Of a DNA stretch of 64,000 bases, positions 24,317 through 63,024 are shown piece by piece (positions within the stretch are counted from its first letter, which is position 1; the number at the start of each line of letters is the position of its first letter). This stretch comes from Bacteroidales bacterium (lineage in GTDB: Bacteria; Bacteroidota; Bacteroidia; Bacteroidales; UBA3663): contig JAZQQU010000095.1 of the NCBI GenBank assembly GCA_045629225.1, positions 8,055-72,054 on the forward strand, in the 5' to 3' direction. Position numbers and translations under genes: made by a program. The notes below the pieces were generated by a model, which worked only from the letters and a program-made list of their open reading frames with translations, had not been told where the DNA came from and made no database searches.

Positions 24317-24556
24317 GGAATCAACACCTCGTACGGTGTGTTGACTCTGTTGATACACAGAGGGGCAAAAGCTGCAACTTTTGCCCCTCTGCGCATAGAA
24401 GATCGCACTAATCGGTGCCTGAATGCTTGGTTTGGCATGCGCGGAATCAACACTTTGTACGATGTGTTGACTACGTTGATGCACAGAGGGGCAAAATATG
24501 CAGCTTTTGCCCCTCTGTGAGTCCCGAAAATCAACACTACGTACGATGTGTCAAAT
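24317..24556. repeat. hairpin-module repeats: two 75-bp copies 126 bp apart plus a third partial module
   Basis: Copy 1 (24317-24391) and copy 2 (24443-24517) share ggaatcaacac.t.gtacg.tgtgttgact..gttgat.cacagaggggcaaaa...cttttgcccctctg. Each holds hairpin A (caacac/gtgttg) and hairpin B (13-14-bp stem cagaggggcaaaag/cttttgcccctctg). Hairpin A recurs at 24529-24556. Confidence 0.85.
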
Positions 24557-24592
24557 TCACATGTACAGAATGTCAAATTTGCATGTATAGAA
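24549..24592. repeat. 22-bp direct tandem repeat x2 (plus a degenerate third)
   Basis: tgtcaaattcacatgtacagaa / tgtcaaatttgcatgtatagaa, then tgccaattacac... Confidence 0.75.
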
Positions 24593-24600
24593 TGCCAATT

Positions 24601-24640
24601 ACACAAAGAGAAGCCCTCACTCCGAATAGAAGTGAGGGCG
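24601..24640 (-). terminator. rho-independent terminator of rpmE
   Basis: On the minus strand: gccctcact-tctattcgg-agtgagggc followed by ttctctttgtgt. Confidence 0.7.
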
Positions 24641-41590: not shown

Positions 41591-41705
41591 CATATTTTTT
41601 ATTAATTATCCAAATACTAAATGTGCATTTTTGTATAACTCATCGATTTTGTGGCCCTAATCGACCACTTTTCACTTTTAGTATTAACTTTTAACTTCTG
41701 CACAG

Positions 41706-42372: not shown

Positions 42373-43521
42373 ATGGCAAAACAAGATTATTACGAAGTGC
42401 TCGGCGTCAAGAAGGACGCCTCTGAAGACGAAATCAAGCGTGCTTATCGCAAGCTCGCCATCAAATATCATCCCGACAAGAACCCCGGCGACAAGGAGGC
42501 TGAGGAGAAGTTCAAGCTGTGTGCTGAGGCCTATGAGGTGCTCAGCGATCCACAGAAACGTCAGCGCTACGATCAGTTCGGCTTCGACGATCCTGGCATG
42601 GGCGGCTTTGGAGGTGGTTCAGGCTTCAACCCATTTGATATCTTCAATAGCTTTTTTGGTGGTGGCAGTAGCAGTGGTGGCTTCAGCAGCTTCTTCTCAG
42701 GTGAGGAGCAGACGGGTCAGCGCGGTCAGAACATCCGTGTTCGTGTCAAGGTCTCACTGGCTGATGTCGTGACGGGAGTGGAGAAGCACATCAAGCTCAA
42801 GAAATACAACGAGTGTCCCCACTGCCATGGCACGGGTGCCAAGGATGGTACTGACTTTGAGACCTGCCCTAGGTGCCAGGGTCGTGGTCGTGTCATGCAG
42901 GTTGTCAACAGCCTCTTCGGCCGTATGCAGACCGAGAGCGCTTGCCCCGAATGCCAAGGCCTGGGCAAGAAGATTAAGACTCGCTGTTCGCACTGCCATG
43001 GCGAGGGTGTAGTGATGGGCGAACAGGTGGTCGACATCAAGATTCCAGCTGGCGTGGCAGGTGGAATGCAGCTCACCATGCAGGGCTATGGTCATGCCGG
43101 CAAGATGGGCGGCCCTGCTGGTGACCTTTACATCCTCATTGAGGAGGAGCAGCAGAATGAGTTCGTACGTCAGGACGACATTCTGATCTACAACCTCCTT
43201 ATTGACTTCCCGACAGCCGCCCTTGGTGGCGAGGTCGAGATTCCCTTGGTGCAGGGCAAGAAGAAGATCTCCATCAAGCCAGGCACCCAGCCCGATACGC
43301 AGATACGTGTTGTGGGCGAAGGTCTGCCCAGTGTGGACAGGTTTGGCAATGCATCGTCGCGTCGTGGCGACCTCATAGTCAATGTGGGTGTCTATGTGCC
43401 CGAACGCCTCAATGACACGCAGAAGCGCCTCGTGGAGCAGATGCGCGACAGCGAAGGCTTCAATGCACCTGCTTCTGCCTTTGCTCGCTTCAAGGAACAC
43501 GTCAAGTCAATGTTCTCGTAA
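42373..43521 (+). CDS. dnaJ: molecular chaperone DnaJ
   Basis: The start is trimmed to ATG 42373 ([12 protein letters not shown]). J-domain HPD motif ([10 protein letters not shown]), G/F-rich region and four CxxCxGxG zinc-finger repeats. Confidence 0.95.
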
Positions 43522-43525
43522 CCGT

Positions 43526-43800
43526 TGTGTGCCCACAATTGCTCGCCAGCACTTCTGACAAAAAATTGTGGACGCACAATTGCTCGCCAGAGTTTCTGGC
43601 AGAAAAATGTGGACGCACAATTGCTCGCCAGGGTTTCTGTCAGAGAATTGTGGACGCACAATGACTTGCCAGAGTTACTGTCAGAGAATTGTGGACGCAC
43701 AATATCTTTTCAGGATTCCTGACATAAAATCGAGCTCTCGAAAAGTTTGCCAGAACTGCTGGCGGATAAAAATTTCGTACACAAAAGTCATCTCGGCTTT
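43526..43800. repeat. tandem array, exact 41-bp period, ~6.5 units with twin palindromes; same family as 5664-5885
   Basis: Unit starts tgtggacgcacaat lie at 43567, 43608, 43649 and 43690, with a degenerate unit at 43526. Each unit has ATTGTG-gacg-CACAAT and GCCAGA-gtt-TCTGGC. From 43730 the units switch to the tcgagctctcgaaaagtttgccaga... type seen at 5.7 kb. Confidence 0.9.
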
Positions 43801-43843
43801 CATTCATCTCTCTGTAATATTTTTACCAATTATTTCTATATCT

Positions 43844-45397
43844 ATGCTTAAACAAATTCGTCGCCTTCTGGCTCTCATTTTCTTCGTGGGCCTCACCTGG
43901 CTGTTCCTCGACTTCACAGGCACAGCACAGTCTTTGGTAGGTTGGATGTCCAAAGTGCAGTTCCTTCCCGCCGTCCTGGCCGTCAACGTGGCCGTCGTTG
44001 TCGTGCTCGTATTGCTCACTCTTGTGTTCGGCCGCATCTATTGTTCGGTCATCTGTCCGTTGGGCGTGCTTCAGGACCTCATTTCCTGGGTGGCTGGCAA
44101 GCTCAACTTCAACAAGAACCAGCGTAAGTTCGGACGTTTCAAGTACGATGACGTGAAGTGGCACAAGATGCTTCGCGTGGTCATCTTTGCACTCTTCCTC
44201 GTGGCTCTGGTGGCAGGTTTTGGCACCTTCGTCCAGCTGCTGGCGCCTTACAGCTCGTTCGGACGTATGGTTACCCTCTTGCTCAAGCCACTCTATGAGA
44301 TGGGCAACAATGTCCTCGCCTCACAGGCTGAGGAGGTAGGAAGTTTCCAGTATTATCAGGTTGATGTCTGGCAGCGTAGCCTCCCAGTCACCATCCTGGC
44401 TGCCTGTACCTTCCTGATCGTGGCCATCATGGCATGGGTGGGTGGTCGTGCCTATTGCAACAATATCTGTCCAGTAGGCACCCTGCTTGGTTTCCTCTCA
44501 CGTCGCAGCTTCTATCGCGTCAACATCGATGCTGACAAATGCAAGAACTGTGGTCTCTGTGCCCGCAAGTGCAAGGGTTCGGCCATCGACTTCAAGAATC
44601 ACACCGTCGATGCCTCACGCTGTGTCGATTGCTTCGACTGCCTCGACACTTGCAAGCACGGAGCTCTCTCGTACAGCCTTGCCAAAACAGCAAAAGAACA
44701 AAACAACCAAACAACAAAAGAACCAAACAACGCAGCTCCAGCTTCCTCCGACCCCACCCGTCGCGCCTTCCTCACCGCCACTGCCACCATCCTGGCAGCT
44801 TCGGCCCTGAAGGCTGAGGAGAAGACCACCGATGGTGGATTCAAGGCTCTGATTGACAAGGAGGCTCCAAAGCGTCAGCGTCCGATCTGTCCTCCTGGTG
44901 CTGTGAGCCTGCGTCACTTGCAGCAGCGTTGCACAGGCTGTCAGCTTTGTGTCAGCGAGTGCCCGAATGGTGTGCTTCGTCCCAGTGGCGATCTGATGAA
45001 CATGATGGCTCCTGTCATGAGCTTTGAGCGTGGCTATTGTCGTCCTGAGTGTACCCGTTGCTCAGATGTCTGCCCTGCTGGTGCCATCATCAAGTTCGAG
45101 GGAGACAAGGCCGAACGTCAGGCAGTCAAGGCCAGCACCAAGGTGGGTACTGCCCACTGGATCAAGGAGAACTGCGTGGTGCTCAACGATGGCGTCAGCT
45201 GTGGTGCTTGTGCTCGTCGTTGTCCTCAGCATGCCATCCAGATGGTGCCCAGCGTAGCCGACGATCCTAAGTCTCCTAAGATTCCGGTCATTGACGAGGA
45301 GAAGTGCATCGGTTGCGGTGCTTGCGAGAATCTCTGTCCATCACGTCCATTCTCGGCCATCTATGTCGAGGGTGTCGATACCCAGCGTGAGATCTGA
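43844..45397 (+). CDS. membrane polyferredoxin: NapH/MauN-like module fused to NapG/MauM-like four-cluster ferredoxin via an internal twin-arginine hydrophobic segment
   Basis: The start is trimmed to ATG 43844, because the track ORF from 43568 translates the 41-bp array. Four TM helices with CxxxCP after TM2 and TM4 (RIYCSVICPLG, RAYCNNICPVG). Cluster motifs CKNCGLCARKC and CVDCFDCLDTC. Linker, then TRRAFLTATATILAASALKA. Then CTGCQLCVSECP, CRPECTRCSDVCP, CGACARRCP and CIGCGACENLCP. Confidence 0.7.
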   Translation: MLKQIRRLLALIFFVGLTWLFLDFTGTAQSLVGWMSKVQFLPAVLAVNVAVVVVLVLLTLVFGRIYCSVICPLGVLQDLISWVAGKLNFNKNQRKFGRFKYDDVKWHKMLRVVIFALFLVALVAGFGTFVQLLAPYSSFGRMVTLLLKPLYEMGNNVLASQAEEVGSFQYYQVDVWQRSLPVTILAACTFLIVAIMAWVGGRAYCNNICPVGTLLGFLSRRSFYRVNIDADKCKNCGLCARKCKGSAIDFKNHTVDASRCVDCFDCLDTCKHGALSYSLAKTAKEQNNQTTKEPNNAAPASSDPTRRAFLTATATILAASALKAEEKTTDGGFKALIDKEAPKRQRPICPPGAVSLRHLQQRCTGCQLCVSECPNGVLRPSGDLMNMMAPVMSFERGYCRPECTRCSDVCPAGAIIKFEGDKAERQAVKASTKVGTAHWIKENCVVLNDGVSCGACARRCPQHAIQMVPSVADDPKSPKIPVIDEEKCIGCGACENLCPSRPFSAIYVEGVDTQREI

Positions 45398-45454
45398 TAT
45401 CATTTTTGTCCTTCACACAACCAAAGGACAAATCAACAAAACAACAAAGCAACA

Positions 45455-46882
45455 ATGAAACATATAATCGATCGTCGTGAGTTCCTCCAGCGCCTTGGCT
45501 TGGGTGCAGCAGCTGTGGCTACTGCTTCGGCCTTGCCATCGTGCATCACGGCTCCAAAGCCTTCGGAGGAGGGCGACTTCAACCCCAAGGGTGGTCCGTT
45601 CAGCGAAGATCAGCTGGGCGAGATGACCTATCGTGTGAACCCTGCCAATGGTGACAAAGTCAGCATCCTCGGCTATGGCTGTATGCGTTTCCCTCAGCGC
45701 ACCGATGGTAAGACTGCCCCTGATGGCAATGACCTCGATCAGGAGAAGATCAACGAACTCGTCAAGTATGCCATGGATCATGGTGTCAACTACTATGACA
45801 CAAGCCCTGCTTACCTGAAGGGCTACTCTGAGCGTTCGGTAGGCATCGCTCTCAAGGCTACGGGACGTCCTCGTGAGTCATATTACATTGCCACGAAGCT
45901 CTCTAACTTCGCTCCTCAGCAGCAGACGCGTGAGGCTTCGCAGGAGATGTTGCACAACTCCCTCAAGTACCTGCAGACTGACTATATCGACTACCTCCTG
46001 CTTCACTCCATCGGTGGCGGTGGTATGAAGAACTTCAACCAGCGCTACATGGATAATGGCATCCTCGACTGGCTCGTCGAACAGAAGCAGAAGGGTGTGA
46101 TCCGCAACCTGGGCTTCTCGTTCCATGGCGAGGCTGAAGTCTTTGAGACCATGCTCAAGTGGCACGACGAGGGTCGCTATCACTGGGATTTCGTCCAGAT
46201 CCAGATGAACTACCTCGACTGGAACAATGGCAACAAGCAGGAGGGTCGTAGCATCAATGCAGAGTATCTCTATGACGAACTCGACAAGCGCGAAATCCCT
46301 GTGGTCATCATGGAACCACTGCTTGGTGGCCGATTGAGCAACCTGCCCAACCATGTCATAGCTCACCTCAAGGCTCGTCTGCCTCAAATGAGTGCAGCTT
46401 CGTGGGCCTTCCGTTTCTGCGGTACTTATCCACGCGTGCTCAGCGCCCTCTCTGGCATGACCTACATGGAACATCTGCAGGACAACCTCCGCAGCTTCTC
46501 GCCTCTGGTGCCACTGACTCAGGAAGAGCTCGACTACCTCGAAGGTGCAGCCAAGCTGCTCATCAAGTATCCGCTCATCCCATGTAATGACTGCAAGTAT
46601 TGCATGCCTTGCGAATACGGTTTGGACATCCCAGGCATCTTCGTACATTATAATAAATGTGTCAACGAAGGTGTGCTCCCAGGCAGTCCTGAGGATGAGA
46701 ACTACAGCGAGCTGCGTCGCAACTATCTCATCAGCTACAATCGTGCCATCCCTACGCTCCGTCAGGCCGACCATTGCATCAACTGCAACAAATGTACTCC
46801 TCACTGCCCGCAGAACATCCGGATTCCACAGCAGCTTGAGAAGATCAATGCAGCCATCGAGCAGTTGAAGCGCCATGGTTAA
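45455..46882 (+). CDS. aldo/keto reductase with C-terminal Fe-S cluster domain, predicted Tat-exported lipoprotein
   Basis: 475 aa. Twin-arginine signal DRREFLQRLGLGAAAVATASALPSC with a lipobox Cys. AKR core (GYGCMRF, YYDTSPAY, IATKL, LLLHS). C-terminal CNDCKYCMPC and CINCNKCTPHCP. Confidence 0.75.
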   Translation: MKHIIDRREFLQRLGLGAAAVATASALPSCITAPKPSEEGDFNPKGGPFSEDQLGEMTYRVNPANGDKVSILGYGCMRFPQRTDGKTAPDGNDLDQEKINELVKYAMDHGVNYYDTSPAYLKGYSERSVGIALKATGRPRESYYIATKLSNFAPQQQTREASQEMLHNSLKYLQTDYIDYLLLHSIGGGGMKNFNQRYMDNGILDWLVEQKQKGVIRNLGFSFHGEAEVFETMLKWHDEGRYHWDFVQIQMNYLDWNNGNKQEGRSINAEYLYDELDKREIPVVIMEPLLGGRLSNLPNHVIAHLKARLPQMSAASWAFRFCGTYPRVLSALSGMTYMEHLQDNLRSFSPLVPLTQEELDYLEGAAKLLIKYPLIPCNDCKYCMPCEYGLDIPGIFVHYNKCVNEGVLPGSPEDENYSELRRNYLISYNRAIPTLRQADHCINCNKCTPHCPQNIRIPQQLEKINAAIEQLKRHG

Positions 46883-46905: not shown

Positions 46906-47757
46906 ATGAATTTCATTGAAGTCCAGGACGTCAGCAAGCAGTATGGCGATCATGTGGCTTTGAACCATGTGAATCTCAGCGTTCCTGATGGTTCTATCTA
47001 CGGCCTTCTGGGTCCTAATGGTGCGGGTAAGACCAGTCTTATCCGCATCATCAATCGTATCACTCATGCCGACAGCGGACAGGTCCTTATGCATGGACGT
47101 CCCATGACCGACGACGATATACGTCAGATCGGTTACCTGCCCGAGGAACGTGGCCTCTACAAGAAGATGAAGGTCGAGGACGAGATCATCTACCTTGCCC
47201 GTCTGCGTGGCCTCACCCGTTATGACGCCATGCAGCGGATGGGGGAGTGGCTCGAACGTTTCGACCTCGGCCAGTGGCGTGACAAAAAGGTCGAACAGCT
47301 CTCCAAGGGCATGGCGCAGAAGGTCCAGTTTATCACCACGGTCATCCACCGTCCGCCACTTCTGATCTTCGACGAACCCTTCTCGGGCTTTGATCCCGTC
47401 AATGCCGAACAACTCAAACGCGAGATACTGCGTCTGCGCGACGAGGGTGCAGCCATCCTGTTCTCCACCCACAACATGTCGTCAGTCGAGGAGGTCTGTC
47501 AGGAGATCTCCCTCATCAACCATGCCGAGGTGGTGCTGCAGGGCCGTGTCGATGACATTCGCCATCAGTTCCGAACGCATGTCTATAAGGTGCAGCTTGC
47601 CGATGGTTCGGAGTTCGACTACCAGCTCCCTGCAGGCCTCTCGCTCCACGATGCCATTACTCAGCTCAACGATCAGTATGCCCTCGCAGGCTTCCATGAG
47701 GTGCTGCCCACTATGCAGCAGATCTTCATGCAGGCTGTCGGTGCGTCCGACTATTAA
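46906..47757 (+). CDS. ABC transporter ATP-binding protein (ABC-2/NatA-like)
   Basis: 283 aa. Walker A GPNGAGKTS, signature LSKGMAQK, Walker B LLIFDEP. It starts 23 bp after the AKR stop. Confidence 0.85.
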   Translation: MNFIEVQDVSKQYGDHVALNHVNLSVPDGSIYGLLGPNGAGKTSLIRIINRITHADSGQVLMHGRPMTDDDIRQIGYLPEERGLYKKMKVEDEIIYLARLRGLTRYDAMQRMGEWLERFDLGQWRDKKVEQLSKGMAQKVQFITTVIHRPPLLIFDEPFSGFDPVNAEQLKREILRLRDEGAAILFSTHNMSSVEEVCQEISLINHAEVVLQGRVDDIRHQFRTHVYKVQLADGSEFDYQLPAGLSLHDAITQLNDQYALAGFHEVLPTMQQIFMQAVGASDY

Positions 47758-47790
47758 CTCTCAACTCTTAACTCTTAACTTTTAACCAGT

Positions 47791-50216: not shown

Positions 50217-52733
50217 ATGCTTCCATACAACGATCCCACATCTCCTGCCCAGCCATCGTCTGGCAATGCATCCCAGGTCGTAGTCAACCCTTCACTGCGC
50301 CCGCTCGACATTGTAGTCCTTCTGGTCTCCAACTGGCCCTGGATCATCCTCTGCCTGCTCCTTGGTTGGGGCGCGGCCGAGGCTTATCTGCTCTTCACAC
50401 CAGCCATCTACACCCGTGAGGCCTCCATACTCATTAAAGATCTCAACAAGGGCAATTCTCTTGGACAGGTAACCAGCGGTTTTGCCGACGCAGGTCTCTT
50501 CGCACAATCCACTGACCTCAACAATGAGATCTTCTTGCTCAAGTCTCCTTCGGTGATGTCCACCGTCATCAATCGCCTTGACCTTCAGACCGACTACGAG
50601 GTAGAGGGCCGTTTCCATAGTGCTCCCCTCTATGGCAGCAACCGCCCTATTCAGGTGCAGATGTTCGACGTCACCGACCAGCATGAGGCTGGTATGACCT
50701 TGGAACTGAAGAAGGATTCAACCTGCATCATCTATAATATGCAGCTCGATGGCCAGCAGTTCCCCGACAAGACTCTCTCTTTCAAGGTGGGCAAGACAGT
50801 CAAGACACCTATTGGACGCATCTGTGTCAATCCTTCGGGCTTCTACAACGAATATCCACGTCCCATCAGCATCCATCGAAGCAGCTTGCAGAGCACACTC
50901 TCGCATTATTCCGGAGAGCTGACTGTGGGATCGGGCGAGAACTCTACGATTATCAATCTCAGCATCAACGATTATGACAAACAGCGTGCTGAGGATATCC
51001 TTTACAACATCATTGCCATCTACAACGAACAGTGGATGGAGGACCGCAACCAGGTGTCCATCAGTACCAATCAATTTATCAACGAACGTCTGCAGGTCAT
51101 CGAGAACGAGTTGGGCGATGTTGAGGGCGATATCACAACCTACAAGTCTCAAAACCTCATCCTTGGTTCGGCAGAGGCCGTGGCTGGTACCTATATGGGG
51201 CAGGCCCAGAATGCTCGTACGCAGCAGATTGAGCTCAACAATCAGCTCTATATGGCCCGTTCCGTGCGCAGCTACCTCACCAACGAACAGAACCTCAACC
51301 AGCTTCTCCCAGCCAGTCAAGGCCTGAGTAGTGCAGGCATAACATCGCAAATCACCGAGTATAATACGATGCTCATGCGTCGCAACAACCTCGTCTCAGC
51401 CTCTTCGCTCCAGAATCCTTTGGTGCAGGATCTCGATATGCAGCTCGCTGGGTTGCGTCAGAATCTCATTGGCTCCATCGATGCACACATCGAGGAACTC
51501 AACCTTCAGGTTCGTTCGGCCCAGTCTATACAGGCAGTGGGCAACAGCAAGGTGGCCAGCGCTCCAACCCAGTCGCGTCATCTGCTTTCCTTCGAGCGTC
51601 AGCAGAAGGTTAAGGAGTCGCTCTACCTCTTCCTGCTTCAGAAGCGTGAGGAGAATGAGCTTTCGCAGGCATTTACTGCCTACAACAACCGTCTCGTCAC
51701 TCCACCTTCTGGCAAGAATGAGCCAACCTTCCCCAAGAAACTCAATGTCTATGCCATCTGCCTGCTCATTGGCCTGCTGCTGCCTATTGGCATCATCCTG
51801 CTCGATGAGTTAGCCAACACCTCTGTGCGAGGTCGCAAGGACCTCGATGTGCTCAACATCCCATTCCTGGGCGAAATACCGCTCAACAATCCAGACAATC
51901 GCTTCGTGCGCTTCTTCAACCGACTGAAGCGTCGATTCTCTATCCAGTCAGACAAGTCACGTCGTCGCAATGAAGACAAGACGTTGCACATCCTGGTTAA
52001 GGATGGCAAGACCGACATCATGAACGAGGCCTTCCGTGTTGTACGTACTAACATGGAGTTTATTGCAGGACGTAGTGATGAGGCTCGCACCATCATGCTC
52101 ACTTCTTTCAATCCAAACTCGGGCAAGACCTTCATCGTCAGCAACCTCGCCCTGACCCTTGCCATCAAGGACAAGCGCGTGCTCTGCATCGACCTCGACA
52201 TGCGTAAGCGATCTCTCTCAGCCCTCGTAGGCAAGCGTCTGCCTGGTCTCTCCAATTATCTGGGTGGCTATATCGATGACTTCCACGAGGTCATCAAGAC
52301 CAGTCCTATACACGACAAGCTCGATGTACTGCCAGCTGGCAAGATTCCTCCTAACCCCACTGAGTTGCTCTTCGAGGCACGTCTTGATGCCTTGCTTTCA
52401 CAGGTTCGCAAGGAATACGATTACGTCTTCCTCGACTGTCCTCCACTTGAGATCGTAGCCGATGCCTCCATCATTGCTCGTCTGGCCGACATGTCCATCT
52501 TTGTTGTTCGTGCCGAGGGTCTGCAGCGCACTGCCTTGCCCGACGTACAGAAGTACTACGATGACAAGCGTCTGCCCAAGATGACCATTCTGCTCAATGG
52601 CACCACCGACGCCTTCTCACGCTACGGTTACCACCGATATGGCAGCCGCTATGGCTACTCGTATGGCTATGGTCGCAGCTACTCGTATGGCTATGGCTAT
52701 AGTGACAGCGAACGTGACAGCAAGAAGGATTAA
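50217..52733 (+). CDS. wzc: chain-length determinant / BY-tyrosine kinase (Wzc family)
   Basis: 838 aa. A Wzz-type periplasmic domain lies between two TM helices. C-terminal kinase with Walker A TSFNPNSGKT, LCIDLDMRKR, FLDCPP and the Tyr-rich tail YGYHRYGSRYGYSYGYGRSYSYGYGY. Confidence 0.88.
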   Translation: MLPYNDPTSPAQPSSGNASQVVVNPSLRPLDIVVLLVSNWPWIILCLLLGWGAAEAYLLFTPAIYTREASILIKDLNKGNSLGQVTSGFADAGLFAQSTDLNNEIFLLKSPSVMSTVINRLDLQTDYEVEGRFHSAPLYGSNRPIQVQMFDVTDQHEAGMTLELKKDSTCIIYNMQLDGQQFPDKTLSFKVGKTVKTPIGRICVNPSGFYNEYPRPISIHRSSLQSTLSHYSGELTVGSGENSTIINLSINDYDKQRAEDILYNIIAIYNEQWMEDRNQVSISTNQFINERLQVIENELGDVEGDITTYKSQNLILGSAEAVAGTYMGQAQNARTQQIELNNQLYMARSVRSYLTNEQNLNQLLPASQGLSSAGITSQITEYNTMLMRRNNLVSASSLQNPLVQDLDMQLAGLRQNLIGSIDAHIEELNLQVRSAQSIQAVGNSKVASAPTQSRHLLSFERQQKVKESLYLFLLQKREENELSQAFTAYNNRLVTPPSGKNEPTFPKKLNVYAICLLIGLLLPIGIILLDELANTSVRGRKDLDVLNIPFLGEIPLNNPDNRFVRFFNRLKRRFSIQSDKSRRRNEDKTLHILVKDGKTDIMNEAFRVVRTNMEFIAGRSDEARTIMLTSFNPNSGKTFIVSNLALTLAIKDKRVLCIDLDMRKRSLSALVGKRLPGLSNYLGGYIDDFHEVIKTSPIHDKLDVLPAGKIPPNPTELLFEARLDALLSQVRKEYDYVFLDCPPLEIVADASIIARLADMSIFVVRAEGLQRTALPDVQKYYDDKRLPKMTILLNGTTDAFSRYGYHRYGSRYGYSYGYGRSYSYGYGYSDSERDSKKD

Positions 52734-52742
52734 ACCCGCATA

Positions 52743-54059
52743 ATGGCCCCAGCAATCGAATTTCAACAAGTAGGCAAAATGTACCGTCTCGGTCGAGTCG
52801 GTACTGGCACTTTGTCTCACGATCTAAACCGCTGGTGGCAGACCCGGATTTTGCGTCGAGAGGATCCCTACCTCAAGATTGGACAGACAAATGATCGCAC
52901 AAGCAAGGGCGAATCCGACTACGTCTGGGCTCTTCGCGATATCAGCTTCAAAGTCGAACAGGGCGAAGTCATAGGCATTATTGGCAAGAATGGTGCAGGC
53001 AAATCGACTCTGTTAAAGCTTCTCAGTAGTATCACCAGCCCCACTACAGGTCGCATCCTGTATCGAGGACGCATAGCATCCTTGCTCGAAGTCGGCACAG
53101 GTTTCCACCCCGAGATGACTGGTCGCGAGAACATCTATATGAATGGCGCCATCATGGGTATGACCAAGCGTGAGATAACTCGCAAGCTGGATGCTATTGT
53201 CGATTTCGCTGGCATCGATCGCTATCTCGATACTCCGGTCAAGCGCTATTCCTCAGGTATGACCGTCCGCCTCGGCTTCTCAGTTGCTGCTTTCCTCGAA
53301 CCAGAGATCCTCGTTGTTGACGAGGTCTTGGCAGTGGGTGATGCCGAATTCCAAAAGAAAGCTCTTGGCAAGATGCAAGATGTGTCAACAGGAGAAGGAC
53401 GAACAGTGCTGTTTGTCAGTCATAATATGGCTGCTGTGAAGATGTTATGTGCTCAAGGTTTAGTTCTTTCAGATGGCAGACTTGATTTTTCGGGAGATAT
53501 TTCTTCTTGTGTGGATCATTATCTCAAAAATGTCTCTATCTCAGACATAGTATCTGATGTTATTATCCATGACTGCCATCGTGAACATTTTCCATTCTTG
53601 ACTTATGCCATTTCTTTTCTTGAGGTCGAAATGCTGAATGCTGACCCTTCTGCGATTGCAACAGATGAGCCTTTAGATTTCAGAGTCCGTCTGAGACAGA
53701 ATCATACAACTGACAGATTTCAGCTTTGCGTCTTCTTTCAAGATTCAACTGATGTCCGAGTAGCATTTTATATGACTGAAGTACTAACTTGCCCAGCAGA
53801 TTCAGATGAGTTTTACCTAGTCATACATATTCCAGTTCACACTTTGCCCCAAGGGCGGTATAGTGTCCGTTTTGAAACCAATCTCCAGGATTTCAACCGG
53901 GGTAGTACACATTTCGATTTCGTGCATCATGTTTTGTCTTTCGAGGTGAAATATATTCATCAAGAGTTCAAGGATGAATTTTTATTTTGGCATCAGGAGT
54001 TCGGACAGACATTGCACATAGGTCAGGGTCAAATACATGCAAGTATTATTCCACAATGA
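52743..54059 (+). CDS. wzt: polysaccharide/O-antigen ABC exporter ATPase (Wzt/TagH type) with ~190-aa C-terminal extension
   Basis: 438 aa. Walker A GKNGAGKST, signature YSSGMTVRL, Walker B ILVVDE, H-loop FVSHN, then a beta-rich C-terminal domain. No adjacent Wzm-type permease. Confidence 0.8.
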   Translation: MAPAIEFQQVGKMYRLGRVGTGTLSHDLNRWWQTRILRREDPYLKIGQTNDRTSKGESDYVWALRDISFKVEQGEVIGIIGKNGAGKSTLLKLLSSITSPTTGRILYRGRIASLLEVGTGFHPEMTGRENIYMNGAIMGMTKREITRKLDAIVDFAGIDRYLDTPVKRYSSGMTVRLGFSVAAFLEPEILVVDEVLAVGDAEFQKKALGKMQDVSTGEGRTVLFVSHNMAAVKMLCAQGLVLSDGRLDFSGDISSCVDHYLKNVSISDIVSDVIIHDCHREHFPFLTYAISFLEVEMLNADPSAIATDEPLDFRVRLRQNHTTDRFQLCVFFQDSTDVRVAFYMTEVLTCPADSDEFYLVIHIPVHTLPQGRYSVRFETNLQDFNRGSTHFDFVHHVLSFEVKYIHQEFKDEFLFWHQEFGQTLHIGQGQIHASIIPQ

Positions 54060-55438
54060 GGGTATTGTATTATAACTGGACGCCTATTGAACAGAAACAC
54101 GCTGGAGGTGGAGTATCAGTCTATCTTTACAATCTTTTTCAGTATTTTTCCTCTCATCAGACTTCAATTCAACCCGTTTTCCTTTCTTCTGGTTATTATT
54201 ACGATAATAAACATCGACCGTACATCACCGAGCGAGAGTGTTACATGGGTATTGAAAACTATTGTTTGGTCAATTCGCCCATCATTGCTCCCCAGTTTAC
54301 CTCTTTTTCTGTCTATCGTCGGCATCTCGACGACAAAGTCATCATTCGTCTATTTCGTCAGTTCTTAATTGATCAAGGACCATTTGATGTTATCCATTTT
54401 CATTCGTTTGAAGGATTGACCACTAAAGTTCTTCAGTTGAAGTCAGAGTTCCAGAACACGCTTTTTGTTCACACGATTCATGATTATGGCTTATTTTGCC
54501 CTACGGTGCGTTTTTGGACTTATGATGCCCGTAATTGTGCCCTAACTCAGGGTCAGGTTTATTGCTATTCTTGTGTTCGTAAAGAATTAGTCCATCGTTA
54601 TACTGATTATCTGGTTGTTAAACGTATGCTTGATGGCCGTCCTCATCGCATGACCATTCTTGACCGTGTAGCCCGAATAATAGAGATTCTACATACTCGT
54701 CTTTCCTATAAGATACACGATTATTTCGAAGATGTTCGTCGTCAGAATGTCAAGATGGTCAATTCTTTTTCCGATGGAGAGCTTTGCGTCTCTCATCGCG
54801 TCATGGATATTGCCACCTCACATGGTATCAATTCTTCCAAGTGTATTGTTTCTTATATCGGAACTCTAGCTGCTTCTTCCTATCTTGGCCAATGCCGAAC
54901 GGCTGTTAATTCGCCAGTTCTCACTATCCTTTTTATGGGATCTGCAGCACCTGAGAAGGGATTGGATACATTGCTGAGTGCTCTTGAATGTATTGATTCA
55001 TCGCGATGCACCATTGCACTGAAGGTCGCTGCTGGTATAGATGATGTTACAGTCTTGCGTCGCTTGGATGTGCTTGGTCATCATTTGGCTGGTGTAATAC
55101 ATTATAATGGCTATACACATCAGGATTTCGGCCAGATTATGCAGGATGTCAATCTAGGAGTTGTCCCTCCGCTCTGGGAAGACAATTTGCCACAGGTAGC
55201 CATTGAGATGATTGCTCATGGCATTCCTATCATAACAGGCATCCATGGTGGTGCTCAGGAGTTGAATACACATCCCTGTTTCCTATTCACTGATTCTTCT
55301 GATCTACAAGGCAAGATTGAGCAGATTTGCAACCATCGTAATCTGTTGAATGATTACTGGTCGTATGTCACTCCTTTGATGACCATGGAACTGCATGTTA
55401 ATCAGTTGCAACAGATCTATAGTCATGAACTTCGATAA
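54056..55438 (+). CDS. glycosyltransferase (GT4/GT1-like)
   Basis: ATG 54056 overlaps the wzt stop (ATGA). MRVLYYNWTPIEQKHAGGGVSVYLYNL... The C-terminal half resembles the GT-B retaining fold (PPLWEDNLPQVAIEMIAHGIPII). Confidence 0.6.
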   Translation: MRVLYYNWTPIEQKHAGGGVSVYLYNLFQYFSSHQTSIQPVFLSSGYYYDNKHRPYITERECYMGIENYCLVNSPIIAPQFTSFSVYRRHLDDKVIIRLFRQFLIDQGPFDVIHFHSFEGLTTKVLQLKSEFQNTLFVHTIHDYGLFCPTVRFWTYDARNCALTQGQVYCYSCVRKELVHRYTDYLVVKRMLDGRPHRMTILDRVARIIEILHTRLSYKIHDYFEDVRRQNVKMVNSFSDGELCVSHRVMDIATSHGINSSKCIVSYIGTLAASSYLGQCRTAVNSPVLTILFMGSAAPEKGLDTLLSALECIDSSRCTIALKVAAGIDDVTVLRRLDVLGHHLAGVIHYNGYTHQDFGQIMQDVNLGVVPPLWEDNLPQVAIEMIAHGIPIITGIHGGAQELNTHPCFLFTDSSDLQGKIEQICNHRNLLNDYWSYVTPLMTMELHVNQLQQIYSHELR

Positions 55439-56477
55439 GCTGCTCACCATCGTCATCCCTGCCTACAACATGCATGATTACCTTCGTCGTTGTCTAGATT
55501 CCATTTGTATAGAGTCTGTAATGAACGATGTGCAAGTCATAGTGGTCAATGATGGTTCTACAGACGATACCTTACAGATAATGCATGAATACGAGCATCG
55601 TTACCCTCACTATATTCAGGTAATAGATAAGGAGAATGGCAATTATGGCTCCTGTATGAATGCCGCTTTACCATTGGTCGAAGGTAAGTATTTTAGGACA
55701 CTCGATGCAGATGACTGGTATGATTCAGATGCATTAGTGCGTTTTATTAAAGATTTGTGGAACTCAGATGCTGATCTGGTATTCTCTGCAATGACTATTC
55801 ATCGCGATTTGCTATCCTCAGTCCTCTCTCATAGTTATTTTGGTCCATCTATTCCAGCAGGCATAGATCTGGATATTGACAGCGTTGATTGGGAATCCTC
55901 TGATATGCCAGAACGAACGATGGGACCTCAGTTCTTAACCTATCGAACTGAAGTATTGCAAAATGTCGGAATGAGATGGACAGAAAACATTTTTTATACT
56001 GATACCGAATATATGGCCAAACCTCTTCGCCTTGTGCATAAGGTAAGATTTTTCAACACATCCATCTATCAGTATCAACAAGGTTTGACTGGCCAGTCTA
56101 TGAATTCTGAGGTTTTCAGTCGTAATATCCGTCATCATCTTCTCGTTTGCCAAAGCATTCTTCTCGATTTCTTGTCCCATCTTCCTTATACTAAAGGTCA
56201 ACATACTTTGTCCATCATGCGTCTCAAGGTGTGGATCGCTGGGGCTTATCGCAGTTTGTATCGTAATGGGTTCACTCATTATCGTCTACTTTCTTCTATC
56301 GACGATATGGTTCAGCATATTCCAGAACTAGATGCTGTCGCAAAGGCTCAGAATGAGTTTAATGGACACTATTATGTCCTCGCTTTTCGACATAATCGTC
56401 TTTGGCTCTTATTCATTTGGCTTGAGTTCCTTTTAAAGTCTAACAGTTATTTGCGTAAGCTTTTGAAAAAGGCTTGA
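55425..56477 (+). CDS. GT2-family glycosyltransferase
   Basis: ATG 55425 lies 14 nt inside the upstream gene. LTIVIPAYNMHDYLRRCLDSI...VIVVNDGSTDDT...LDADD (DXD). Confidence 0.8.
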   Translation: MNFDKLLTIVIPAYNMHDYLRRCLDSICIESVMNDVQVIVVNDGSTDDTLQIMHEYEHRYPHYIQVIDKENGNYGSCMNAALPLVEGKYFRTLDADDWYDSDALVRFIKDLWNSDADLVFSAMTIHRDLLSSVLSHSYFGPSIPAGIDLDIDSVDWESSDMPERTMGPQFLTYRTEVLQNVGMRWTENIFYTDTEYMAKPLRLVHKVRFFNTSIYQYQQGLTGQSMNSEVFSRNIRHHLLVCQSILLDFLSHLPYTKGQHTLSIMRLKVWIAGAYRSLYRNGFTHYRLLSSIDDMVQHIPELDAVAKAQNEFNGHYYVLAFRHNRLWLLFIWLEFLLKSNSYLRKLLKKA

Positions 56478-56625
56478 CCATACATTTCCCAGGAAAGATA
56501 AACCCGACATCTTTCGAGGCGAAGGTATCTAACACCTGACTATGTCATCCAGAGCCGAGTAGCACATTTAGGAAGTTTGCATTCTCATCCTGAGGTGGCT
56601 CCCACTGGCTAGTTTGTTCCAGATT

Positions 56626-57417
56626 ATGATCCCCAAAATCATCCACTATACTTGGTTCAGCTCCGACCCATTTCCCGATGCGGTGAGGAAATGTCTAGAC
56701 TCATGGCATCAGCACATGCCTGATTGGCAGTACATGCTGTGGGATGCAGAACGCATCAAGGACATCGAGTCTGTTTGGCTCAAAGAATGCCTGCAAGAGC
56801 ACAAATGGGCATTCGCTGCTGACTATGTGCGTCTCTATGCCTTGAGCCGGTATGGTGGCATCTACCTCGATACAGATTGTTTGGTCTATCATTCGCTCGA
56901 ATCTTTTTTGCACCATCAGGCATTCATAGGTCGAGAGTGGTATGTACATATCGATGGCGGCACCACGTGGCATTATCTCTCGTCTCATTGTTTTGGCGCA
57001 GTGTCAGGCCATCCTTTCGTTTTGCGTTGTCTGGAGTATTACAAAGGACGTCATTTCGTCAAGTCGGCAGATGGTTCTTTGCCCGACAATCTACGCCTCG
57101 ACCAAACTCTTCTCCCGCTGATTCAGTGCCAGTTGGCACAGCAAATGTATGGCTATGACCCCAGTCCATGTTGTTCAGGCGTCCAGAACCTTACATGTCT
57201 CGATTCTGTGTTAGTAGTCTATCCTTATCCATATTTCGATCCATACGACATCCAGAAGCAAACAATAGTCCGCCATCTTTCGTTAGGCAGCTGGTATGGC
57301 AAGGTGGCCAAGGTCTCCGCCAGAGCTTCTTATTTGCAACGCATCAAGTATCGCCTTGACTTATGGTTCAGACACTTCATGTGGCGTCATGGCTATATTG
57401 TGGAGCATAAGCGTTAA
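56626..57417 (+). CDS. GT32-like glycosyltransferase (DXD sugar-binding region)
   Basis: ATG 56626 (the track start 56614 is a TTG). IPKIIHYTWFS... and YGGIYLDTD are typical of the Gly_transf_sug/OCH1-like family. Confidence 0.7.
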   Translation: MIPKIIHYTWFSSDPFPDAVRKCLDSWHQHMPDWQYMLWDAERIKDIESVWLKECLQEHKWAFAADYVRLYALSRYGGIYLDTDCLVYHSLESFLHHQAFIGREWYVHIDGGTTWHYLSSHCFGAVSGHPFVLRCLEYYKGRHFVKSADGSLPDNLRLDQTLLPLIQCQLAQQMYGYDPSPCCSGVQNLTCLDSVLVVYPYPYFDPYDIQKQTIVRHLSLGSWYGKVAKVSARASYLQRIKYRLDLWFRHFMWRHGYIVEHKR

Positions 57418-57423
57418 TCAATT

Positions 57424-58302
57424 ATGTTAGGCACCCTCTTCTTCACCTGTTTCGATGCGGTCTATCGTCATCTTTGTTTTATGCCACGCATCATGCCTCA
57501 TGCTGAGACAGTCGAGAAGATTGTCTGCCAACACCTGTCATTGGCGCGTTTTGGTGATGGCGAACTGAAGGTGATGCTGGGTGCTGACATCAATTTCCAG
57601 TCTGCTTCACCCTTGTTGTCCCGAAGGCTCAAAGAGGTCTTCCTAAGTCAAGAGTCTCATCTCCTTATTGGTATTCCAGATATTTTTGAGCATCTGGAAC
57701 GATATAATGCTACCGAACAGGAGTTTTGGCGATATCATCTTCGTTTCCGTCGTTGGCATTGGCATCGATATATCCGTCGCACACAATGGTATGCCAGCAC
57801 TTTCCTATCACGTTTCTATAGCATGGAGTACGATCTTCAGTTATCCAATTCTCGCTTGCGGATGCTCCGGCAATTATGGGATGGCCGCAATGTACTTTTC
57901 GTAGAGGGCATGGACACTAAGTTGGGAGTAGGCAATGATCTGTTTGAGAATGCAACCTCCATCCGCCGCATCCTCTGTCCTGCTAAAGATGCCTTCTCTT
58001 CGTACGATGCTATCCTGAAGGCTACACTCAATGAGGCTCAATCTGATGATCTCATTATTCTTGCCTTAGGACCTACAGCTACTGTTCTGGCTGCAGATCT
58101 ATGTCGATCCGGTTTTCAGGCACTTGATCTTGGCCACATAGATATTGAATACGAATGGTACTTGCAGCATGCTACAGCCAAGGTAGGCATAAAAGGCAAG
58201 TTTAGCAATGAAGCTTTTTTGACCCACATGGCCACGGCCGAGGTAGAAGGTGAATTGTCGGGAGATGCCTATACTAATCAGATAATTGCTGTCATAGTAT
58301 AG
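57424..58302 (+). CDS. GT-D fold glycosyltransferase (DUF1792 / SP_1767 family)
   Basis: 292 aa. Hallmark motifs SLARFGDGELKVMLG, VEGMDTKLGVGNDLF, ALGPTATVLAADL and LDLGHIDIEYEWY. Confidence 0.8.
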   Translation: MLGTLFFTCFDAVYRHLCFMPRIMPHAETVEKIVCQHLSLARFGDGELKVMLGADINFQSASPLLSRRLKEVFLSQESHLLIGIPDIFEHLERYNATEQEFWRYHLRFRRWHWHRYIRRTQWYASTFLSRFYSMEYDLQLSNSRLRMLRQLWDGRNVLFVEGMDTKLGVGNDLFENATSIRRILCPAKDAFSSYDAILKATLNEAQSDDLIILALGPTATVLAADLCRSGFQALDLGHIDIEYEWYLQHATAKVGIKGKFSNEAFLTHMATAEVEGELSGDAYTNQIIAVIV

Positions 58303-58304
58303 TC

Positions 58305-59276
58305 ATGGTTTGTGTATCAGTTATTGTACCAGTTCATAATGTAGAGCCATACATCGAGCGCTGTGTTCGGAGTCTGATGGGGCAAACGCTCGAATCGCTT
58401 GAGTTCATCTTTGTCGATGATCATGGCACAGATGACTCTGTTGGCATTCTGACGAAAGTCCTTAACGATTATCCTCAAAAACAAGCTCGGGTAAGCATTA
58501 TTCACAATGAGGAAAACCTCGGTCTGTCACTTTCTCGAAAAAAGGGCTTCGAAGCATCTCATGGCCAGTATCTGATTGCTTGTGATGCAGACGATTGGGT
58601 CGAACCAGATGCCTACCAAAAGTTATACGAGCAGGCTCAAAAAAGTAAGGCTGACATCGTTGTCTGTGACTATATTAAGGAATTGCCTCACGCCTCTCAA
58701 CCTTGGCCTTTCAATCTTGATTCAGATGCTAAGAGATGCCTTCAGCAGATTCATGACAATCATCGATTCTCTTGGACTATCTGGAATCAGCTTATCCGTC
58801 GCGATATTGCACTAACAGCTATTCAAGAAGTCTATCCTACAACCTATGCCGAAGACATCTATACCATGATTCATGCCTATTGGTTGTCCACTATTGTAGC
58901 ACAGGTCAAAGAACCGCTTTATCATTACAACCAGAGTAATGCACGGTCAGTGATGTCTCGTGGCGTATGGCCGAAGGATATCTGGCATGCGCAACAACAG
59001 AATATTGAAGCTGTCATCACTCTCCTGAATCCATCTGAAAATCCTGAGTATACCCTCACTTGCCAGTGGCTGAAGTTCAAGATCAAGGAGAAACTTGTTT
59101 CTTCATTCCCAGATCTCCATACTTATTACATTACCTACAAAGAGAGTCATCTCGACATCTTACATTACGAATACATCCCACTCTCTGTCCGTCGTAAACT
59201 ACGCATCATTTATAGTTGCTACTTCACTTTCTGGCTTTATCACCAACTCCAGAAATTTCGTTACCTTTGCTCATGA
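58305..59276 (+). CDS. GT2-family glycosyltransferase
   Basis: VSVIVPVHNVEPYIERCVRSLMGQT...FIFVDDHGTDDS...CDADD. Confidence 0.8.
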   Translation: MVCVSVIVPVHNVEPYIERCVRSLMGQTLESLEFIFVDDHGTDDSVGILTKVLNDYPQKQARVSIIHNEENLGLSLSRKKGFEASHGQYLIACDADDWVEPDAYQKLYEQAQKSKADIVVCDYIKELPHASQPWPFNLDSDAKRCLQQIHDNHRFSWTIWNQLIRRDIALTAIQEVYPTTYAEDIYTMIHAYWLSTIVAQVKEPLYHYNQSNARSVMSRGVWPKDIWHAQQQNIEAVITLLNPSENPEYTLTCQWLKFKIKEKLVSSFPDLHTYYITYKESHLDILHYEYIPLSVRRKLRIIYSCYFTFWLYHQLQKFRYLCS

Positions 59277-60340
59277 ACTCCCTTGAAAGTTCCTTGCCCG
59301 TCATTGACTTTGTCCTTCCCATTGTCGATCCTTCCGATCCTGAGTGGCAGGCTCAATATCGCCAGTATTGCAGTGGGGGAGAGGGCGATGACCCTGTTCG
59401 CTTTCGCGACTGGGGATGGCTTCGTTATTGGTTACGAAGTGTAGCTGCTAATGCCCCTTGGGTACATCGCATCTATATCCTTTCTTGCAATCCAAAGCCT
59501 GATTGGGTCAATGCCGAGGGTGAACGTCTGGTGTGGCTACATCACCGCGATTTCATTCCTGCAGGATTCTTGCCTACATTCAATGTCAACACCATCGAAC
59601 TTCATCTGCATCGTATCCCGGGGTTATCAGAGCATTTTGTCTATTTCAATGATGATACACTCCTCAATGCTCCGATAGAACCTACCTTTTATTTCCGCGA
59701 TGGCCTACCATGTGACGCTACTCTCGAAGGTCTCTTCTTCGTCCCTCACTACGAGCAGGGCAATTGGGGCACGCAATTAATGGAGTTTTGTGATGTAGGT
59801 CTCCTTAAGAAACACTTTCTCCGCCAAGATGTTGTGAAAGGTAATTGGTATCGATGGTATGGCAGTTATCTCCCTTGGCAGTCGCGTCTCAAAGCTTTCT
59901 TACTTTCATTTCAGTCGCAGTTCTTTAATTTCAATACACCTCATCACGAGCGTCCTTTGCTCAAGAGTATATTCGAAGAAGTTTGGCAGGCTGAGCCGGA
60001 GTATCTTCGACGTAGTTGCACCCGTTTTCGTGAACCCACCAATGCTAATGTTTATCTGATGCGTTACTGGCATCTGGCAAGTAACCGTTTTTTCCCAGAA
60101 CGCAGTCGCTTGCATTGCAAATATTACGAGATAATGCCTGAGACACTCGACATGATCTGTCATGATCTGGCCACTGGCCAAGTGCCCAGCCTTTGCCTCA
60201 ATGATGTCTCAACCTGCAGTGACGAATTCTTCTGCCAGGCCAAGGAACGGCTCAATGCAGTCCTGCTCGAAAGATATCCTTTGGCATGTGAATATGAATA
60301 TTCTCTTCCTCATCCCAAGTCTCCATGCCCGAGGTGCTGA
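59273..60340 (+). CDS. Stealth-family hexose-1-phosphate transferase (capsule phosphotransferase type)
   Basis: ATG 59273 overlaps the upstream stop (ATGA). Stealth CR1-like IDFVLPIVDPSDPEW, and CR2-like LRYWLRSVAANAPWVHRIYILSCNPKPDW...FNVNTIELHLHRIPGLSEHFVYFNDD. Confidence 0.75.
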   Translation: MNSLESSLPVIDFVLPIVDPSDPEWQAQYRQYCSGGEGDDPVRFRDWGWLRYWLRSVAANAPWVHRIYILSCNPKPDWVNAEGERLVWLHHRDFIPAGFLPTFNVNTIELHLHRIPGLSEHFVYFNDDTLLNAPIEPTFYFRDGLPCDATLEGLFFVPHYEQGNWGTQLMEFCDVGLLKKHFLRQDVVKGNWYRWYGSYLPWQSRLKAFLLSFQSQFFNFNTPHHERPLLKSIFEEVWQAEPEYLRRSCTRFREPTNANVYLMRYWHLASNRFFPERSRLHCKYYEIMPETLDMICHDLATGQVPSLCLNDVSTCSDEFFCQAKERLNAVLLERYPLACEYEYSLPHPKSPCPRC

Positions 60341-62887: not shown

Positions 62888-62947
62888 GACAACTATTATT
62901 CTTTCCTTGTCCCAATTCGCGTAAAAAAGAATAAAAATAACACTCTA

Positions 62948-62992
62948 AATGCGATTGAATGCACTATTTCGTGCTTCAATCGCATTTTTTTT
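62948..62992 (+). terminator. rho-independent terminator ending the glycan locus
   Basis: aatgcgattgaa(t)gcac-tatttc-gtgcttcaatcgcatt followed by an 8 T run. Confidence 0.8.
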
Positions 62993-63024
62993 CCCTTTTC
63001 GTACCATCGTATTGAAAAAAACAT

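Follow-up and report, generated by a model that had tools for sequence, protein, structure and literature searches.

The 64-kb window analyzed here, a stretch of a single contig (JAZQQU010000095.1) with a GC content of 51%, derives from an uncultured member of the Bacteroidales, its named homologues belonging to metagenome-assembled genomes (MAGs) of that order. It poses the question of what kind of element the tandem array of short palindromes lying between dnaJ and the gene for a membrane polyferredoxin might be. A first-pass annotation of this DNA had left three options, namely an operator array for a dimeric regulator, a multi-hairpin RNA leader or a mobile satellite similar to the REP/BIME elements. 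Comparisons with related genomes lead us to favor, with a probability of roughly 0.55, the reading that it is a lineage-specific palindromic minisatellite of short intercistronic gaps, a filler comparable to the REP, BOX and MIRU elements rather than a conserved regulatory switch. The family to which it belongs is present at no fewer than two loci in this genome.

The existence of the array upstream of the polyferredoxin gene (array 1) was borne out by several approaches. Tandem Repeats Finder (TRF) detected it at 43534-43703 (period 41, 4.2 copies, 85% matches, score 220), while a repeat search of the window placed its copies from 43526 onwards at spacings of 41, 41 and 41 bp. Relative to dinucleotide-preserving shuffles, from which all expected counts derive, the motif GCCAGANNNTCTGGC with up to two mismatches shows 15 matches against 3.7 expected, with five in array 1 and two in array 2 (see below); similarly, TTCGAGNNCTCGAA is found 10 times against 2.5 expected, with five matches in array 2 and one at 43729. 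The motif TTGTGGACGCACAAT has five in-register matches on the + strand of array 1, in addition to a reverse read of the first of these. Perfect palindromes with 5-bp arms reach a density of about 35 per kb in the array as against 4.9 per kb across the window.

In its full extent (43525-43788) array 1 consists of five units of one type (type A) and one unit of a second type (type B) at a 41-bp spacing. The type-A unit displays a fixed order of elements: a first dyad, HP1 (TTGTG-GACG-CACAA, extending to ATTGTG/CACAAT in the best copies), a 6-nt linker, a second dyad, HP2 (GCCAGA-GTT-TCTGGC), and an A-rich tail. In general terms, HP1 is a 14-nt dyad with a 5-6-bp stem and a 2-4-nt center, and HP2 takes the form GCCAG-N5-CTGGC. 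The two palindromes claimed for every unit are present as dyads, but both are perfect in unit 2 only: HP1 is perfect, with arms of at least 5 bp, in every type-A unit except unit 3, where it has 4 bp; HP2 deviates by one or two mismatches in units 1, 3 and 4, and unit 5 has a different dyad in its place. The components of the array are as follows, with bit scores from a covariance model (R1) that was built from 26 aligned units:

43525-43565, + strand: unit 1, type A, degenerate; HP1 TTGTG-TGCC-CACAA, HP2 GCCAGCACTTCTGAC; 39.7 bits
43566-43606, + strand: unit 2, type A, the best copy; ATTGTG-GACG-CACAAT, GCCAGA-GTT-TCTGGC and an AGAAAA tail; 48 bits
43607-43647, + strand: unit 3, type A, found by the repeat search and the covariance model
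43648-43688, + strand: unit 4, type A, likewise found by the repeat search and the covariance model
43689-43729, + strand: unit 5, type A, with HP2 as the compensated variant TCAGG-ATT-CCTGA
43729-43774, + strand: unit 6, type B; TCGAG-CT-CTCGA plus GCCAGAACTGCTGGC; lacking in a relative of about 93% identity
43775-43788, + strand: closing half unit of HP1, degenerate (TTCGTACACAAAAG); its homologue in the relative L131 is TGTGCATACACAAAAG
43789-43843, + strand: spacer before the polyferredoxin start, kept in its entirety in L131

The switch to a second unit type near 43730 had been correctly noted, while both boundaries required adjustment. The array starts 3-4 bp, and not 5 bp, after the dnaJ stop codon (TAA, 43519-43521), and, as the type-B unit is followed by the half unit at 43775-43788, recognizable repeat DNA stops about 55 bp, and not about 45 bp, before the ATG at 43844. 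That ATG is the true start of the polyferredoxin (517 aa): the N-termini of its homologues begin with MLKQIRRL, and the source contig (75,209 bp) has a product of the same length, 517 aa, on record. The open reading frame (ORF) called from 43568 is an artifact, the array being mistranslated as its N-terminus, as had been pointed out earlier. A CRISPR array had also been rightly discounted, as the whole 41-bp unit repeats with no unique spacer, and no cas domain was detected in the scanned ORFs.

The second array, which had been placed at 5.7 kb, is equally real. It consists of six type-B units and fills the 253-bp gap from the stop codon of a TPR protein gene to the start of a gene encoding a response regulator with a PglZ domain, both on the - strand; we take the latter architecture to be that of PorX. 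The HP1 starts of array 2 (5663, 5704, 5745, 5786, 5827 and 5868) follow a strict 41-bp period, while HP2 is decayed in units 3, 5 and 6. Its units are only about 58% identical to one another, which is why TRF overlooked it. Array 2 and the genes bordering the two arrays are:

5663-5886, + strand: array 2, six type-B units; HP1 TTCGAG-NN-CTCGAA, HP2 GCCAGA..TCTGGC
4056-5633, - strand: response regulator with PglZ domain, downstream of array 2 along transcription
5887-8940, - strand: TPR protein gene, with its stop codon directly adjoining array 2
42373-43521, + strand: dnaJ, the upstream flank of array 1
43844-45397, + strand: membrane polyferredoxin (Fer4_5 and several 4Fe-4S domains), the downstream flank of array 1

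The two arrays are 38 kb apart and their neighboring genes are unrelated. Each occupies a gap between two co-directional genes and begins at the stop codon of the upstream gene; hence, both are probably transcribed. Both arrays read along the + strand while the genes around array 1 and array 2 lie on opposite strands, so that the two have opposite orientations with respect to transcription. Separately, we observed that 6-bp palindromes are dense in both regions (43500-43850 and 5630-5900), with three instances of CAATTG, two of GAGCTC, three of GAATTC and one each of GACGTC and AAGCTT, all of them classical restriction sites.

Related genomes throw light on how array 1 came to be in its present position. 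In three more distant relatives the spacer between dnaJ and the polyferredoxin gene is devoid of an array and measures 39 bp (L063), 38 bp (L126) and 36 bp (L128). The last ~38 bp of the window's spacer (43805-43843) align with the entire 38-bp spacer of L126, which points to this segment as the probable ancestral spacer and promoter region. Taken together, the short array-free spacers and this alignment show that array 1 is an insertion of about 280 bp directly behind the dnaJ stop codon; at the level of such alignments, the family has evidently been inserted into spacers that are 36-39 bp long in these three relatives. The corresponding gap holds other sequence in L127 (91 bp) and L061 (121 bp), and in L062 it is expanded to 337 bp by an unrelated array with a 53-bp period and 2.8 copies. 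Thus, to judge from these genomes, the gap is a hot spot for repeats that has been hit repeatedly in the clade. The L062 array (9783-9933) bears an imperfect TTGATTTCCTTTG/CAAAAAGGATCAA dyad and precedes a polyferredoxin with 83% amino-acid identity to that of the window.

Closer relatives are represented by two contigs, L129 and L131, from the same Logan sample (SRR21150981). L129 is collinear with positions 1-6235 of the window, with 93.4% nucleotide identity over 6.2 kb. Its version of array 2 has the same six units in the same 253 bp with no indel, and differs from that of the window by 15 substitutions in the six units and 16 in the 253-bp spacer as a whole (93.3% identity over the units). 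By comparison, the identity at third codon positions near array 2 is 82% in the PorX-like gene and 94% in PriA. Two of the L129 substitutions convert a mismatched HP1 to a perfect TTCAA-AGTC-TTGAA stem. The L131 contig, which is cut within array 1 (1-25), retains at least four type-A units at a 41-bp spacing with intact GCCAG/CTGGC stems, varying loops and a TGGCTT/TGGCTC linker in place of the TTGCTC of three window units. It has the same terminal half unit, while the type-B unit is absent, and it probably has fewer type-A units than the window. Unit-to-unit identities reveal no one-to-one orthology with the window's array except for the first unit, whose HP2 loop (CACTT) is that of the first, cut unit of L131. 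These comparisons indicate that the arrays are inherited vertically, evidently over about 7% sequence divergence, while their unit content turns over; to go by the L131 array, the type-B unit was gained by or lost from array 1 within that same interval.

A more distant genome presents a coding counterpart of array 2. At this locus L130 (GCA_045628525.1; ~83-85% nucleotide identity to the window) has five type-B-like units with a 42-bp period (9749-9958; TRF: 3.5 copies; unit TTCGACGTCTCGAA-ATCGTC-GCCAGAGG...), which retain HP1 but not HP2. These units are read in frame as part of the acidic C-terminus of the TPR protein, where DDFETSNGSTETSG appears about three times; because they sit inside the TPR ORF, only 29 bp separate its called stop codon from the PorX-like start. 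The TPR protein of the window also has an acidic tail, ending in ...NETPSDETEQPDEQE*, which contains a unit-like palindrome:

5910-5925, + strand: palindrome CCGTCT-CGTC-AGACGG inside the acidic C-terminal tail of the TPR gene, encoding PSDETE, about one period past unit 6 of array 2

This might, on weak grounds, be viewed as a seventh, coding unit of array 2; the weak match of the covariance model to unit 6 (5868-5915, 15.2 bits, E-value 0.51) touches only its first bases. The L130 repeat would reflect either the in-frame invasion of a gene end or the origin of the family as a coding minisatellite. Under the latter scenario type B would have arisen as a 42-bp repeat coding for 14 aa of the acidic C-terminal TPR tail; in the window lineage a stop codon then severed it, leaving a non-coding array to decay. 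While the in-frame L130 array and the acidic, palindrome-bearing tail in the window are in line with this proposal, it leaves both the type-A module and array 1, 38 kb away behind dnaJ, unexplained, and it presupposes that the same single base pair was lost from all six units. Moreover, the non-coding copies have retained their HP1 dyads and HP2 stems better than would be expected of a decaying relic, and in L130 the reading frame may do no more than run through an inserted element, for which the in-frame palindromic elements of Rickettsia provide a precedent. Hence, we give an origin as a coding relic little credence.

To examine the constraint on the dyads we aligned 26 units, 12 from the window and 14 from the loci of three relatives. 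HP1 forms standard pairs in 93% of the cells, as against 24-49% in slid controls; for HP2 the proportion is 74%. Four of the five HP1 pairs display changes on both sides, with no one-sided or G-U states. Between types A and B there are compensatory changes at three stem pairs (G-C to C-G, T-A to G-C and G-C to A-T), and further paired changes distinguish the TCCGA/TCGGA variant (T-A to C-G) and the TTCAA/TTGAA variant (G-C to A-T). The HP1 covariation score of 0.40, against 0.20 in shuffles, was reached by none of 500 shuffles, and reflects few independent change events, roughly five. It should be borne in mind that such apparent compensation could also arise without selection, by template switching from one arm of a quasi-palindrome to the other. 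Thus, as far as the alignment goes, unit content changes between relatives while stem complementarity is demonstrably kept through changes on both sides. The differences are also unevenly distributed: between the best type-A unit (unit 2 of array 1) and the best type-B unit (v1), 8 of the 14 HP1 positions differ as against only 4 of the 27 others. This suggests that HP1 acts as an exchangeable module on a constant backbone of HP2 and tail, and at least four versions of its stem (TTGTG, TTCGA, TCCGA and TTCAA) occur within the lineage.

Such a pattern might be expected of a phased platform for protein binding, in which HP1 and/or HP2 are sites for a dimeric DNA-binding or nucleoid-associated protein, set about four helical turns apart on the same face of the DNA, with types A and B representing two specificities. 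The strictly Watson-Crick 14-nt HP1 dyad without G-U states, the swapping of the HP1 module with retention of the rest of the unit, and the exact 41-bp register of both arrays despite the ~58% unit identity in array 2 are all compatible with this proposal, as are the periods of the related and unrelated arrays in relatives (42, 43 and 53 bp), which lie near 4 or 5 helical turns. On the other hand, a single regulator is not readily reconciled with at least four HP1 stem versions in one lineage or with two loci that have unrelated neighbors, the two considerations that also render the operator array of the first-pass annotation unlikely. Furthermore, more distant relatives that have these genes lack the arrays, array 1 lies upstream of the conserved promoter-proximal spacer without overlapping it, no regulator gene is adjacent among the scanned window ORFs, and the 42-bp version is translated in L130. 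We therefore regard a binding platform as unlikely.

The folding of RNA from both strands, which the first-pass annotation had put forward as a check, gave a divided outcome. Array 1 folds better than its shuffles on both strands (z = -3.75 and -4.4), and its unit 2 is predicted to form two clean hairpins (-15.6 kcal/mol, z = -3.5), but the units of array 2 fold no better than shuffles. Along with the probable transcription of both arrays between co-directional genes, the former values could speak for a selected cis-acting RNA, either a leader with multiple hairpins ahead of the polyferredoxin operon or a site of intercistronic mRNA stabilization or processing; for intercistronic REPs, roles in mRNA decay and termination have been proposed. 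Against this, the units have opposite orientations relative to transcription at the two loci, the array is missing in the three more distant relatives with the same operon, and the HP1 stems are only 4-6 bp long and lack G-U states. A search of Rfam at the gathering threshold and at E-values of up to 10 recovered nothing relevant, and a scan for intrinsic terminators found no terminator-like site at the arrays. A promoter scan also returned no sites with a sigma-70 model, which does not apply to Bacteroidetes. Accordingly, the leader interpretation is disfavored, and we consider a cis-acting RNA in either form to be improbable.

If the arrays are not a conserved feature of these genes, one would wish to know how widely the family is dispersed. 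Pattern scans with GCCAGANTTTNTGGCAGAAA over one genome per species and with GCCAGN{35,37}GCCAGAGTTTCTGG over JGI metagenomes each returned about 60 single matches in unrelated taxa, and an nhmmer check recovered no array among them. Two pattern scans of viral contigs gave four chance matches in one and zero in the other, and blastn searches of plasmid and phage collections yielded no match. With filters off, the covariance model R1 detected no solitary or diverged units in the 64-kb window, nor did it find solitary units in ~105 kb of relatives; in both only the known arrays were recovered, i.e. the family is seen there only in the form of arrays. The chance-only matches and the result with R1 suggest that the family is a narrow one, confined to this species-level lineage and its near relatives.

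This distribution bears on the possibility of a REP- or MITE-type element (miniature inverted-repeat transposable element) moved by an enzyme of its own, for example a RAYT-like Y1/HUH or insertion-sequence (IS) transposase, which would recognize the hairpins and add discrete 41-bp modules in register. The presence of a type-B unit inside the type-A array of the window and not in its 93% relative is compatible with this mechanism, as is the strict register of diverged units, which is what the addition of whole modules would produce. The stems covary as they do in REP families (PMC3733652), and CGTC directly precedes HP2 on its 5' side in three of the 26 aligned units, all from relatives. However, among those window ORFs that were scanned with Pfam there was neither a RAYT (Y1) or other transposase nor a cas gene or an adjacent DNA-binding regulator. 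There are no solitary units or inverted dimers but only head-to-tail arrays, whereas REPs occur mainly as head-to-head dimers, head-to-tail ones being few (PMC3733652). Of the MITE traits, terminal inverted-repeat modules, in the sense of a recognizable leader or tail, were not seen: the arrays start and end with HP1, and outside the units the DNA bordering array 1 has no sequence in common with that bordering array 2. Nor did comparison with the empty sites of L063 and L126 reveal a target-site duplication at the junction. We accordingly hold an element moved by its own enzyme to be a rather doubtful explanation. Separately, the GACG/CGTC tetranucleotide of the type-A HP1 was considered as a candidate for the CGTC tag of REPs and rejected, as it sits in the loop and not at an end.

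We hence return to the palindromic minisatellite as the reading that best accommodates insertion into short spacers, vertical inheritance and unit turnover. Under this reading the arrays would grow and shrink through replication slippage or unequal recombination, and units might travel between loci by ectopic recombination, conversion or some enzyme. The dyads would persist either because hairpin-forming or dyad DNA is selected or because they are self-correcting via template switching between the arms. A phenotype, if any, would be mediated by hairpins in intercistronic or 3' mRNA, as in an intercistronic REP or BOX, with no dedicated regulator; any function past hairpin formation is an unproven candidate.

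Certain observations nevertheless sit uneasily with a minisatellite. That the family is dispersed is judged from two loci within 64 kb. The exact register of array 2 is retained despite the low identity of its units; the array has no indel relative to L129 and, at 93.3%, is more conserved than the third codon positions of the PorX-like gene (82%), though not those of PriA (94%); by this comparison, register, lack of indels and identity hint at a constraint on spacing or sequence beyond that of a purely neutral satellite. In addition, the strict Watson-Crick covariation of HP1 without G-U states fits a dyad at the DNA level, possibly a protein site, equally well as a hairpin. It is on account of the register, the lack of indels and this covariation that a protein platform and a module-adding enzyme each retain a low probability as an explanation. 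A bolder variant, which we view as distinctly improbable, is that the 41-bp unit is a modular two-dyad cassette recognized as such, in which HP2 and the A-rich tail would serve as a constant handle and HP1, in its types A and B and compensated variants, as an exchangeable specificity module, with units being added in exact register by a dedicated hairpin- or dyad-recognizing protein or bound by a phased dimer. If true, it would set these arrays apart as a new class of repeat locus in Bacteroidales, spacer-less, serviced by a protein and also able to extend protein tails in frame, and the 43-bp and 53-bp double-hairpin arrays of the relatives would be its sister classes.

The 43-bp array is found in L130 (3265-3524; 6.1 copies of the unit GGAAACGTTGCCGCAGCCGTGCGGCAACCTTTCCTAAAGGTTG) and is unrelated in sequence; its GTTGCCGCA/TGCGGCAAC and AACCTTT/AAAGGTT dyads are able to nest into one long hairpin. 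It lies between genes for a DbpA-type helicase and an M20 peptidase, where the window has a 62-bp gap (12232-12293) with no array. Together with the 53-bp array of L062, it indicates that hairpin-bearing tandem arrays of 41-53 bp recur in the clade with differing sequences. Shorter repeats are also frequent: the gaps just upstream of start codons are often filled in this lineage with 7-9-bp tandem repeats that differ between relatives (ACTTTTA, ACTCTTA, ACTTTTTA, TCTTTACC and 11 copies of CCCTCAAAC), as seen at 41667-41697 and 47750-47786 in the window, at 79-122, 9947-9986 and 14092-14141 in L062 and at 13184-13282 in L061. Elsewhere in the window (24296-24610), a module of ~126 bp with a CAACAC...GTGTTG hairpin and a strong terminator-like hairpin (CAGAGGGGCAAAAGCTGCAACTTTTGCCCCTCTG) is duplicated, and beyond the two copies lie a partial third one and a tandem repeat of 22 bp (24549-24605); the module is overlapped by an ORF (23794-24438) with no Pfam match.

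The polyferredoxin gene itself includes a low-complexity linker (44683-44731) encoded by 8-bp and 24-bp repeats (CAAAACAA). At the equivalent position L061 has ten copies of TGAAACC (10848-10924), suggesting that the linker is a hypervariable coding microsatellite, and a similar A/C-rich repeat is found at 45417-45455, ahead of the start of the next gene. The polyferredoxin gene is followed by genes for an aldo/keto reductase with an Fe-S domain and then an ABC transporter, and the ORFs scanned in the rest of the window have housekeeping and capsule functions. GC skew tracks gene orientation in the window and provides no replication signal. A cluster of glycosyltransferases for capsule or exopolysaccharide (52000-64000) has a GC content of 0.44-0.47 against ~0.52 in the rest of the window, and may have been acquired horizontally.

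To our knowledge, interspersed palindromic repeats have received ample study in Proteobacteria, Firmicutes and mycobacteria and hardly any in gut or rumen Bacteroidales. The arrays described here show that such elements occur in Bacteroidales in a distinct form, i.e. head-to-tail, with units of two dyads of which the first can be swapped. The arrays also have practical consequences. They break short-read assemblies, as illustrated by the L131 contig ending inside array 1, and will be under-represented in MAG-based censuses. They mislead gene callers, as seen in the false N-terminal extension of the polyferredoxin in the window and the C-terminal extension of the TPR protein in L130. As they can enlarge an intercistronic gap of 36-39 bp to ~320 bp, they may alter operon expression, and they could serve as markers for strain typing. 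If a servicing protein exists, a new repeat-protein system would be at hand.

How, then, does the 41-bp family relate to known systems? With two arrays of six 41-bp units each, it has the form of a minisatellite or variable-number tandem repeat, a class in which units of 10-100 bp follow one another head to tail at two or more intergenic loci. The MIRUs of Mycobacterium tuberculosis are head-to-tail units of ~40-100 bp that occupy multiple operon gaps, starting at or overlapping the upstream stop codon; they are not composed of dyads, and they run in the same direction as the genes on either side. The 41-bp arrays are likewise head-to-tail, multi-locus and intercistronic but, unlike MIRUs, are oppositely oriented relative to their genes at the two loci. 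The units of Rickettsia palindromic elements (RPEs) can sit in frame inside genes. The 42-bp version in the TPR tail of L130 shares this property, although RPEs are single dispersed insertions and not tandem arrays. RPEs are mentioned in the REP literature (PMC3733652).

The REP/BIME elements are short extragenic palindromes of Enterobacteria and Pseudomonas, including GTAG- and CGTC-tagged superfamilies (PMC3733652, PMC2817692). In its behavior the 41-bp family is much like them: it is extragenic, lineage-specific and intercistronic or 3' in position, is clustered in regular arrays at several loci, inserted into spacers that are otherwise 36-39 bp long, has stems that covary between subfamilies and occasionally has in-frame units. 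Of the three options first envisaged, the REP/BIME-like satellite is thus the best. Strict membership, however, fails. REPs have an unpaired GTAG or CGTC tag, with stems of 8-9 bp in the CGTC family; they are mostly singletons or head-to-head dimers and many are tied to a RAYT, and BIMEs alternate in orientation. In contrast, the 41-bp units are head-to-tail throughout both arrays and in the relatives, combine two different 5-6-bp dyads in one unit and have no tag in the window, where the four bases 5' of HP2 are GCTC, CTTG, CTTC or CAAC; no RAYT was seen in the scanned ORFs.

The BOX elements of Streptococcus pneumoniae, with the structure boxA-boxB(n)-boxC (PMC3049150), offer a parallel in their tandem short module (boxB), copy number varying between strains, intergenic location, predicted stem-loops and ability to modify the ends of neighboring genes; however, they possess distinct terminal boxA and boxC modules with inverted ends, whereas the 41-bp arrays simply begin and end with HP1. 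In searches of the literature, BrickBuilt of Porphyromonas gingivalis, a minisatellite/MITE (PMC4596501), was the only described Bacteroidales repeat family of a comparable kind to be found. It too is a species-restricted, spacer-less tandem repeat that is always intergenic and present at multiple loci, but differs from the 41-bp family, whose unit contains two internal dyads and whose arrays have no leader or tail. By analogy, therefore, the 41-bp family resembles REP/BIME, BOX, MIRU and BrickBuilt in behavior and is a member of none of them.

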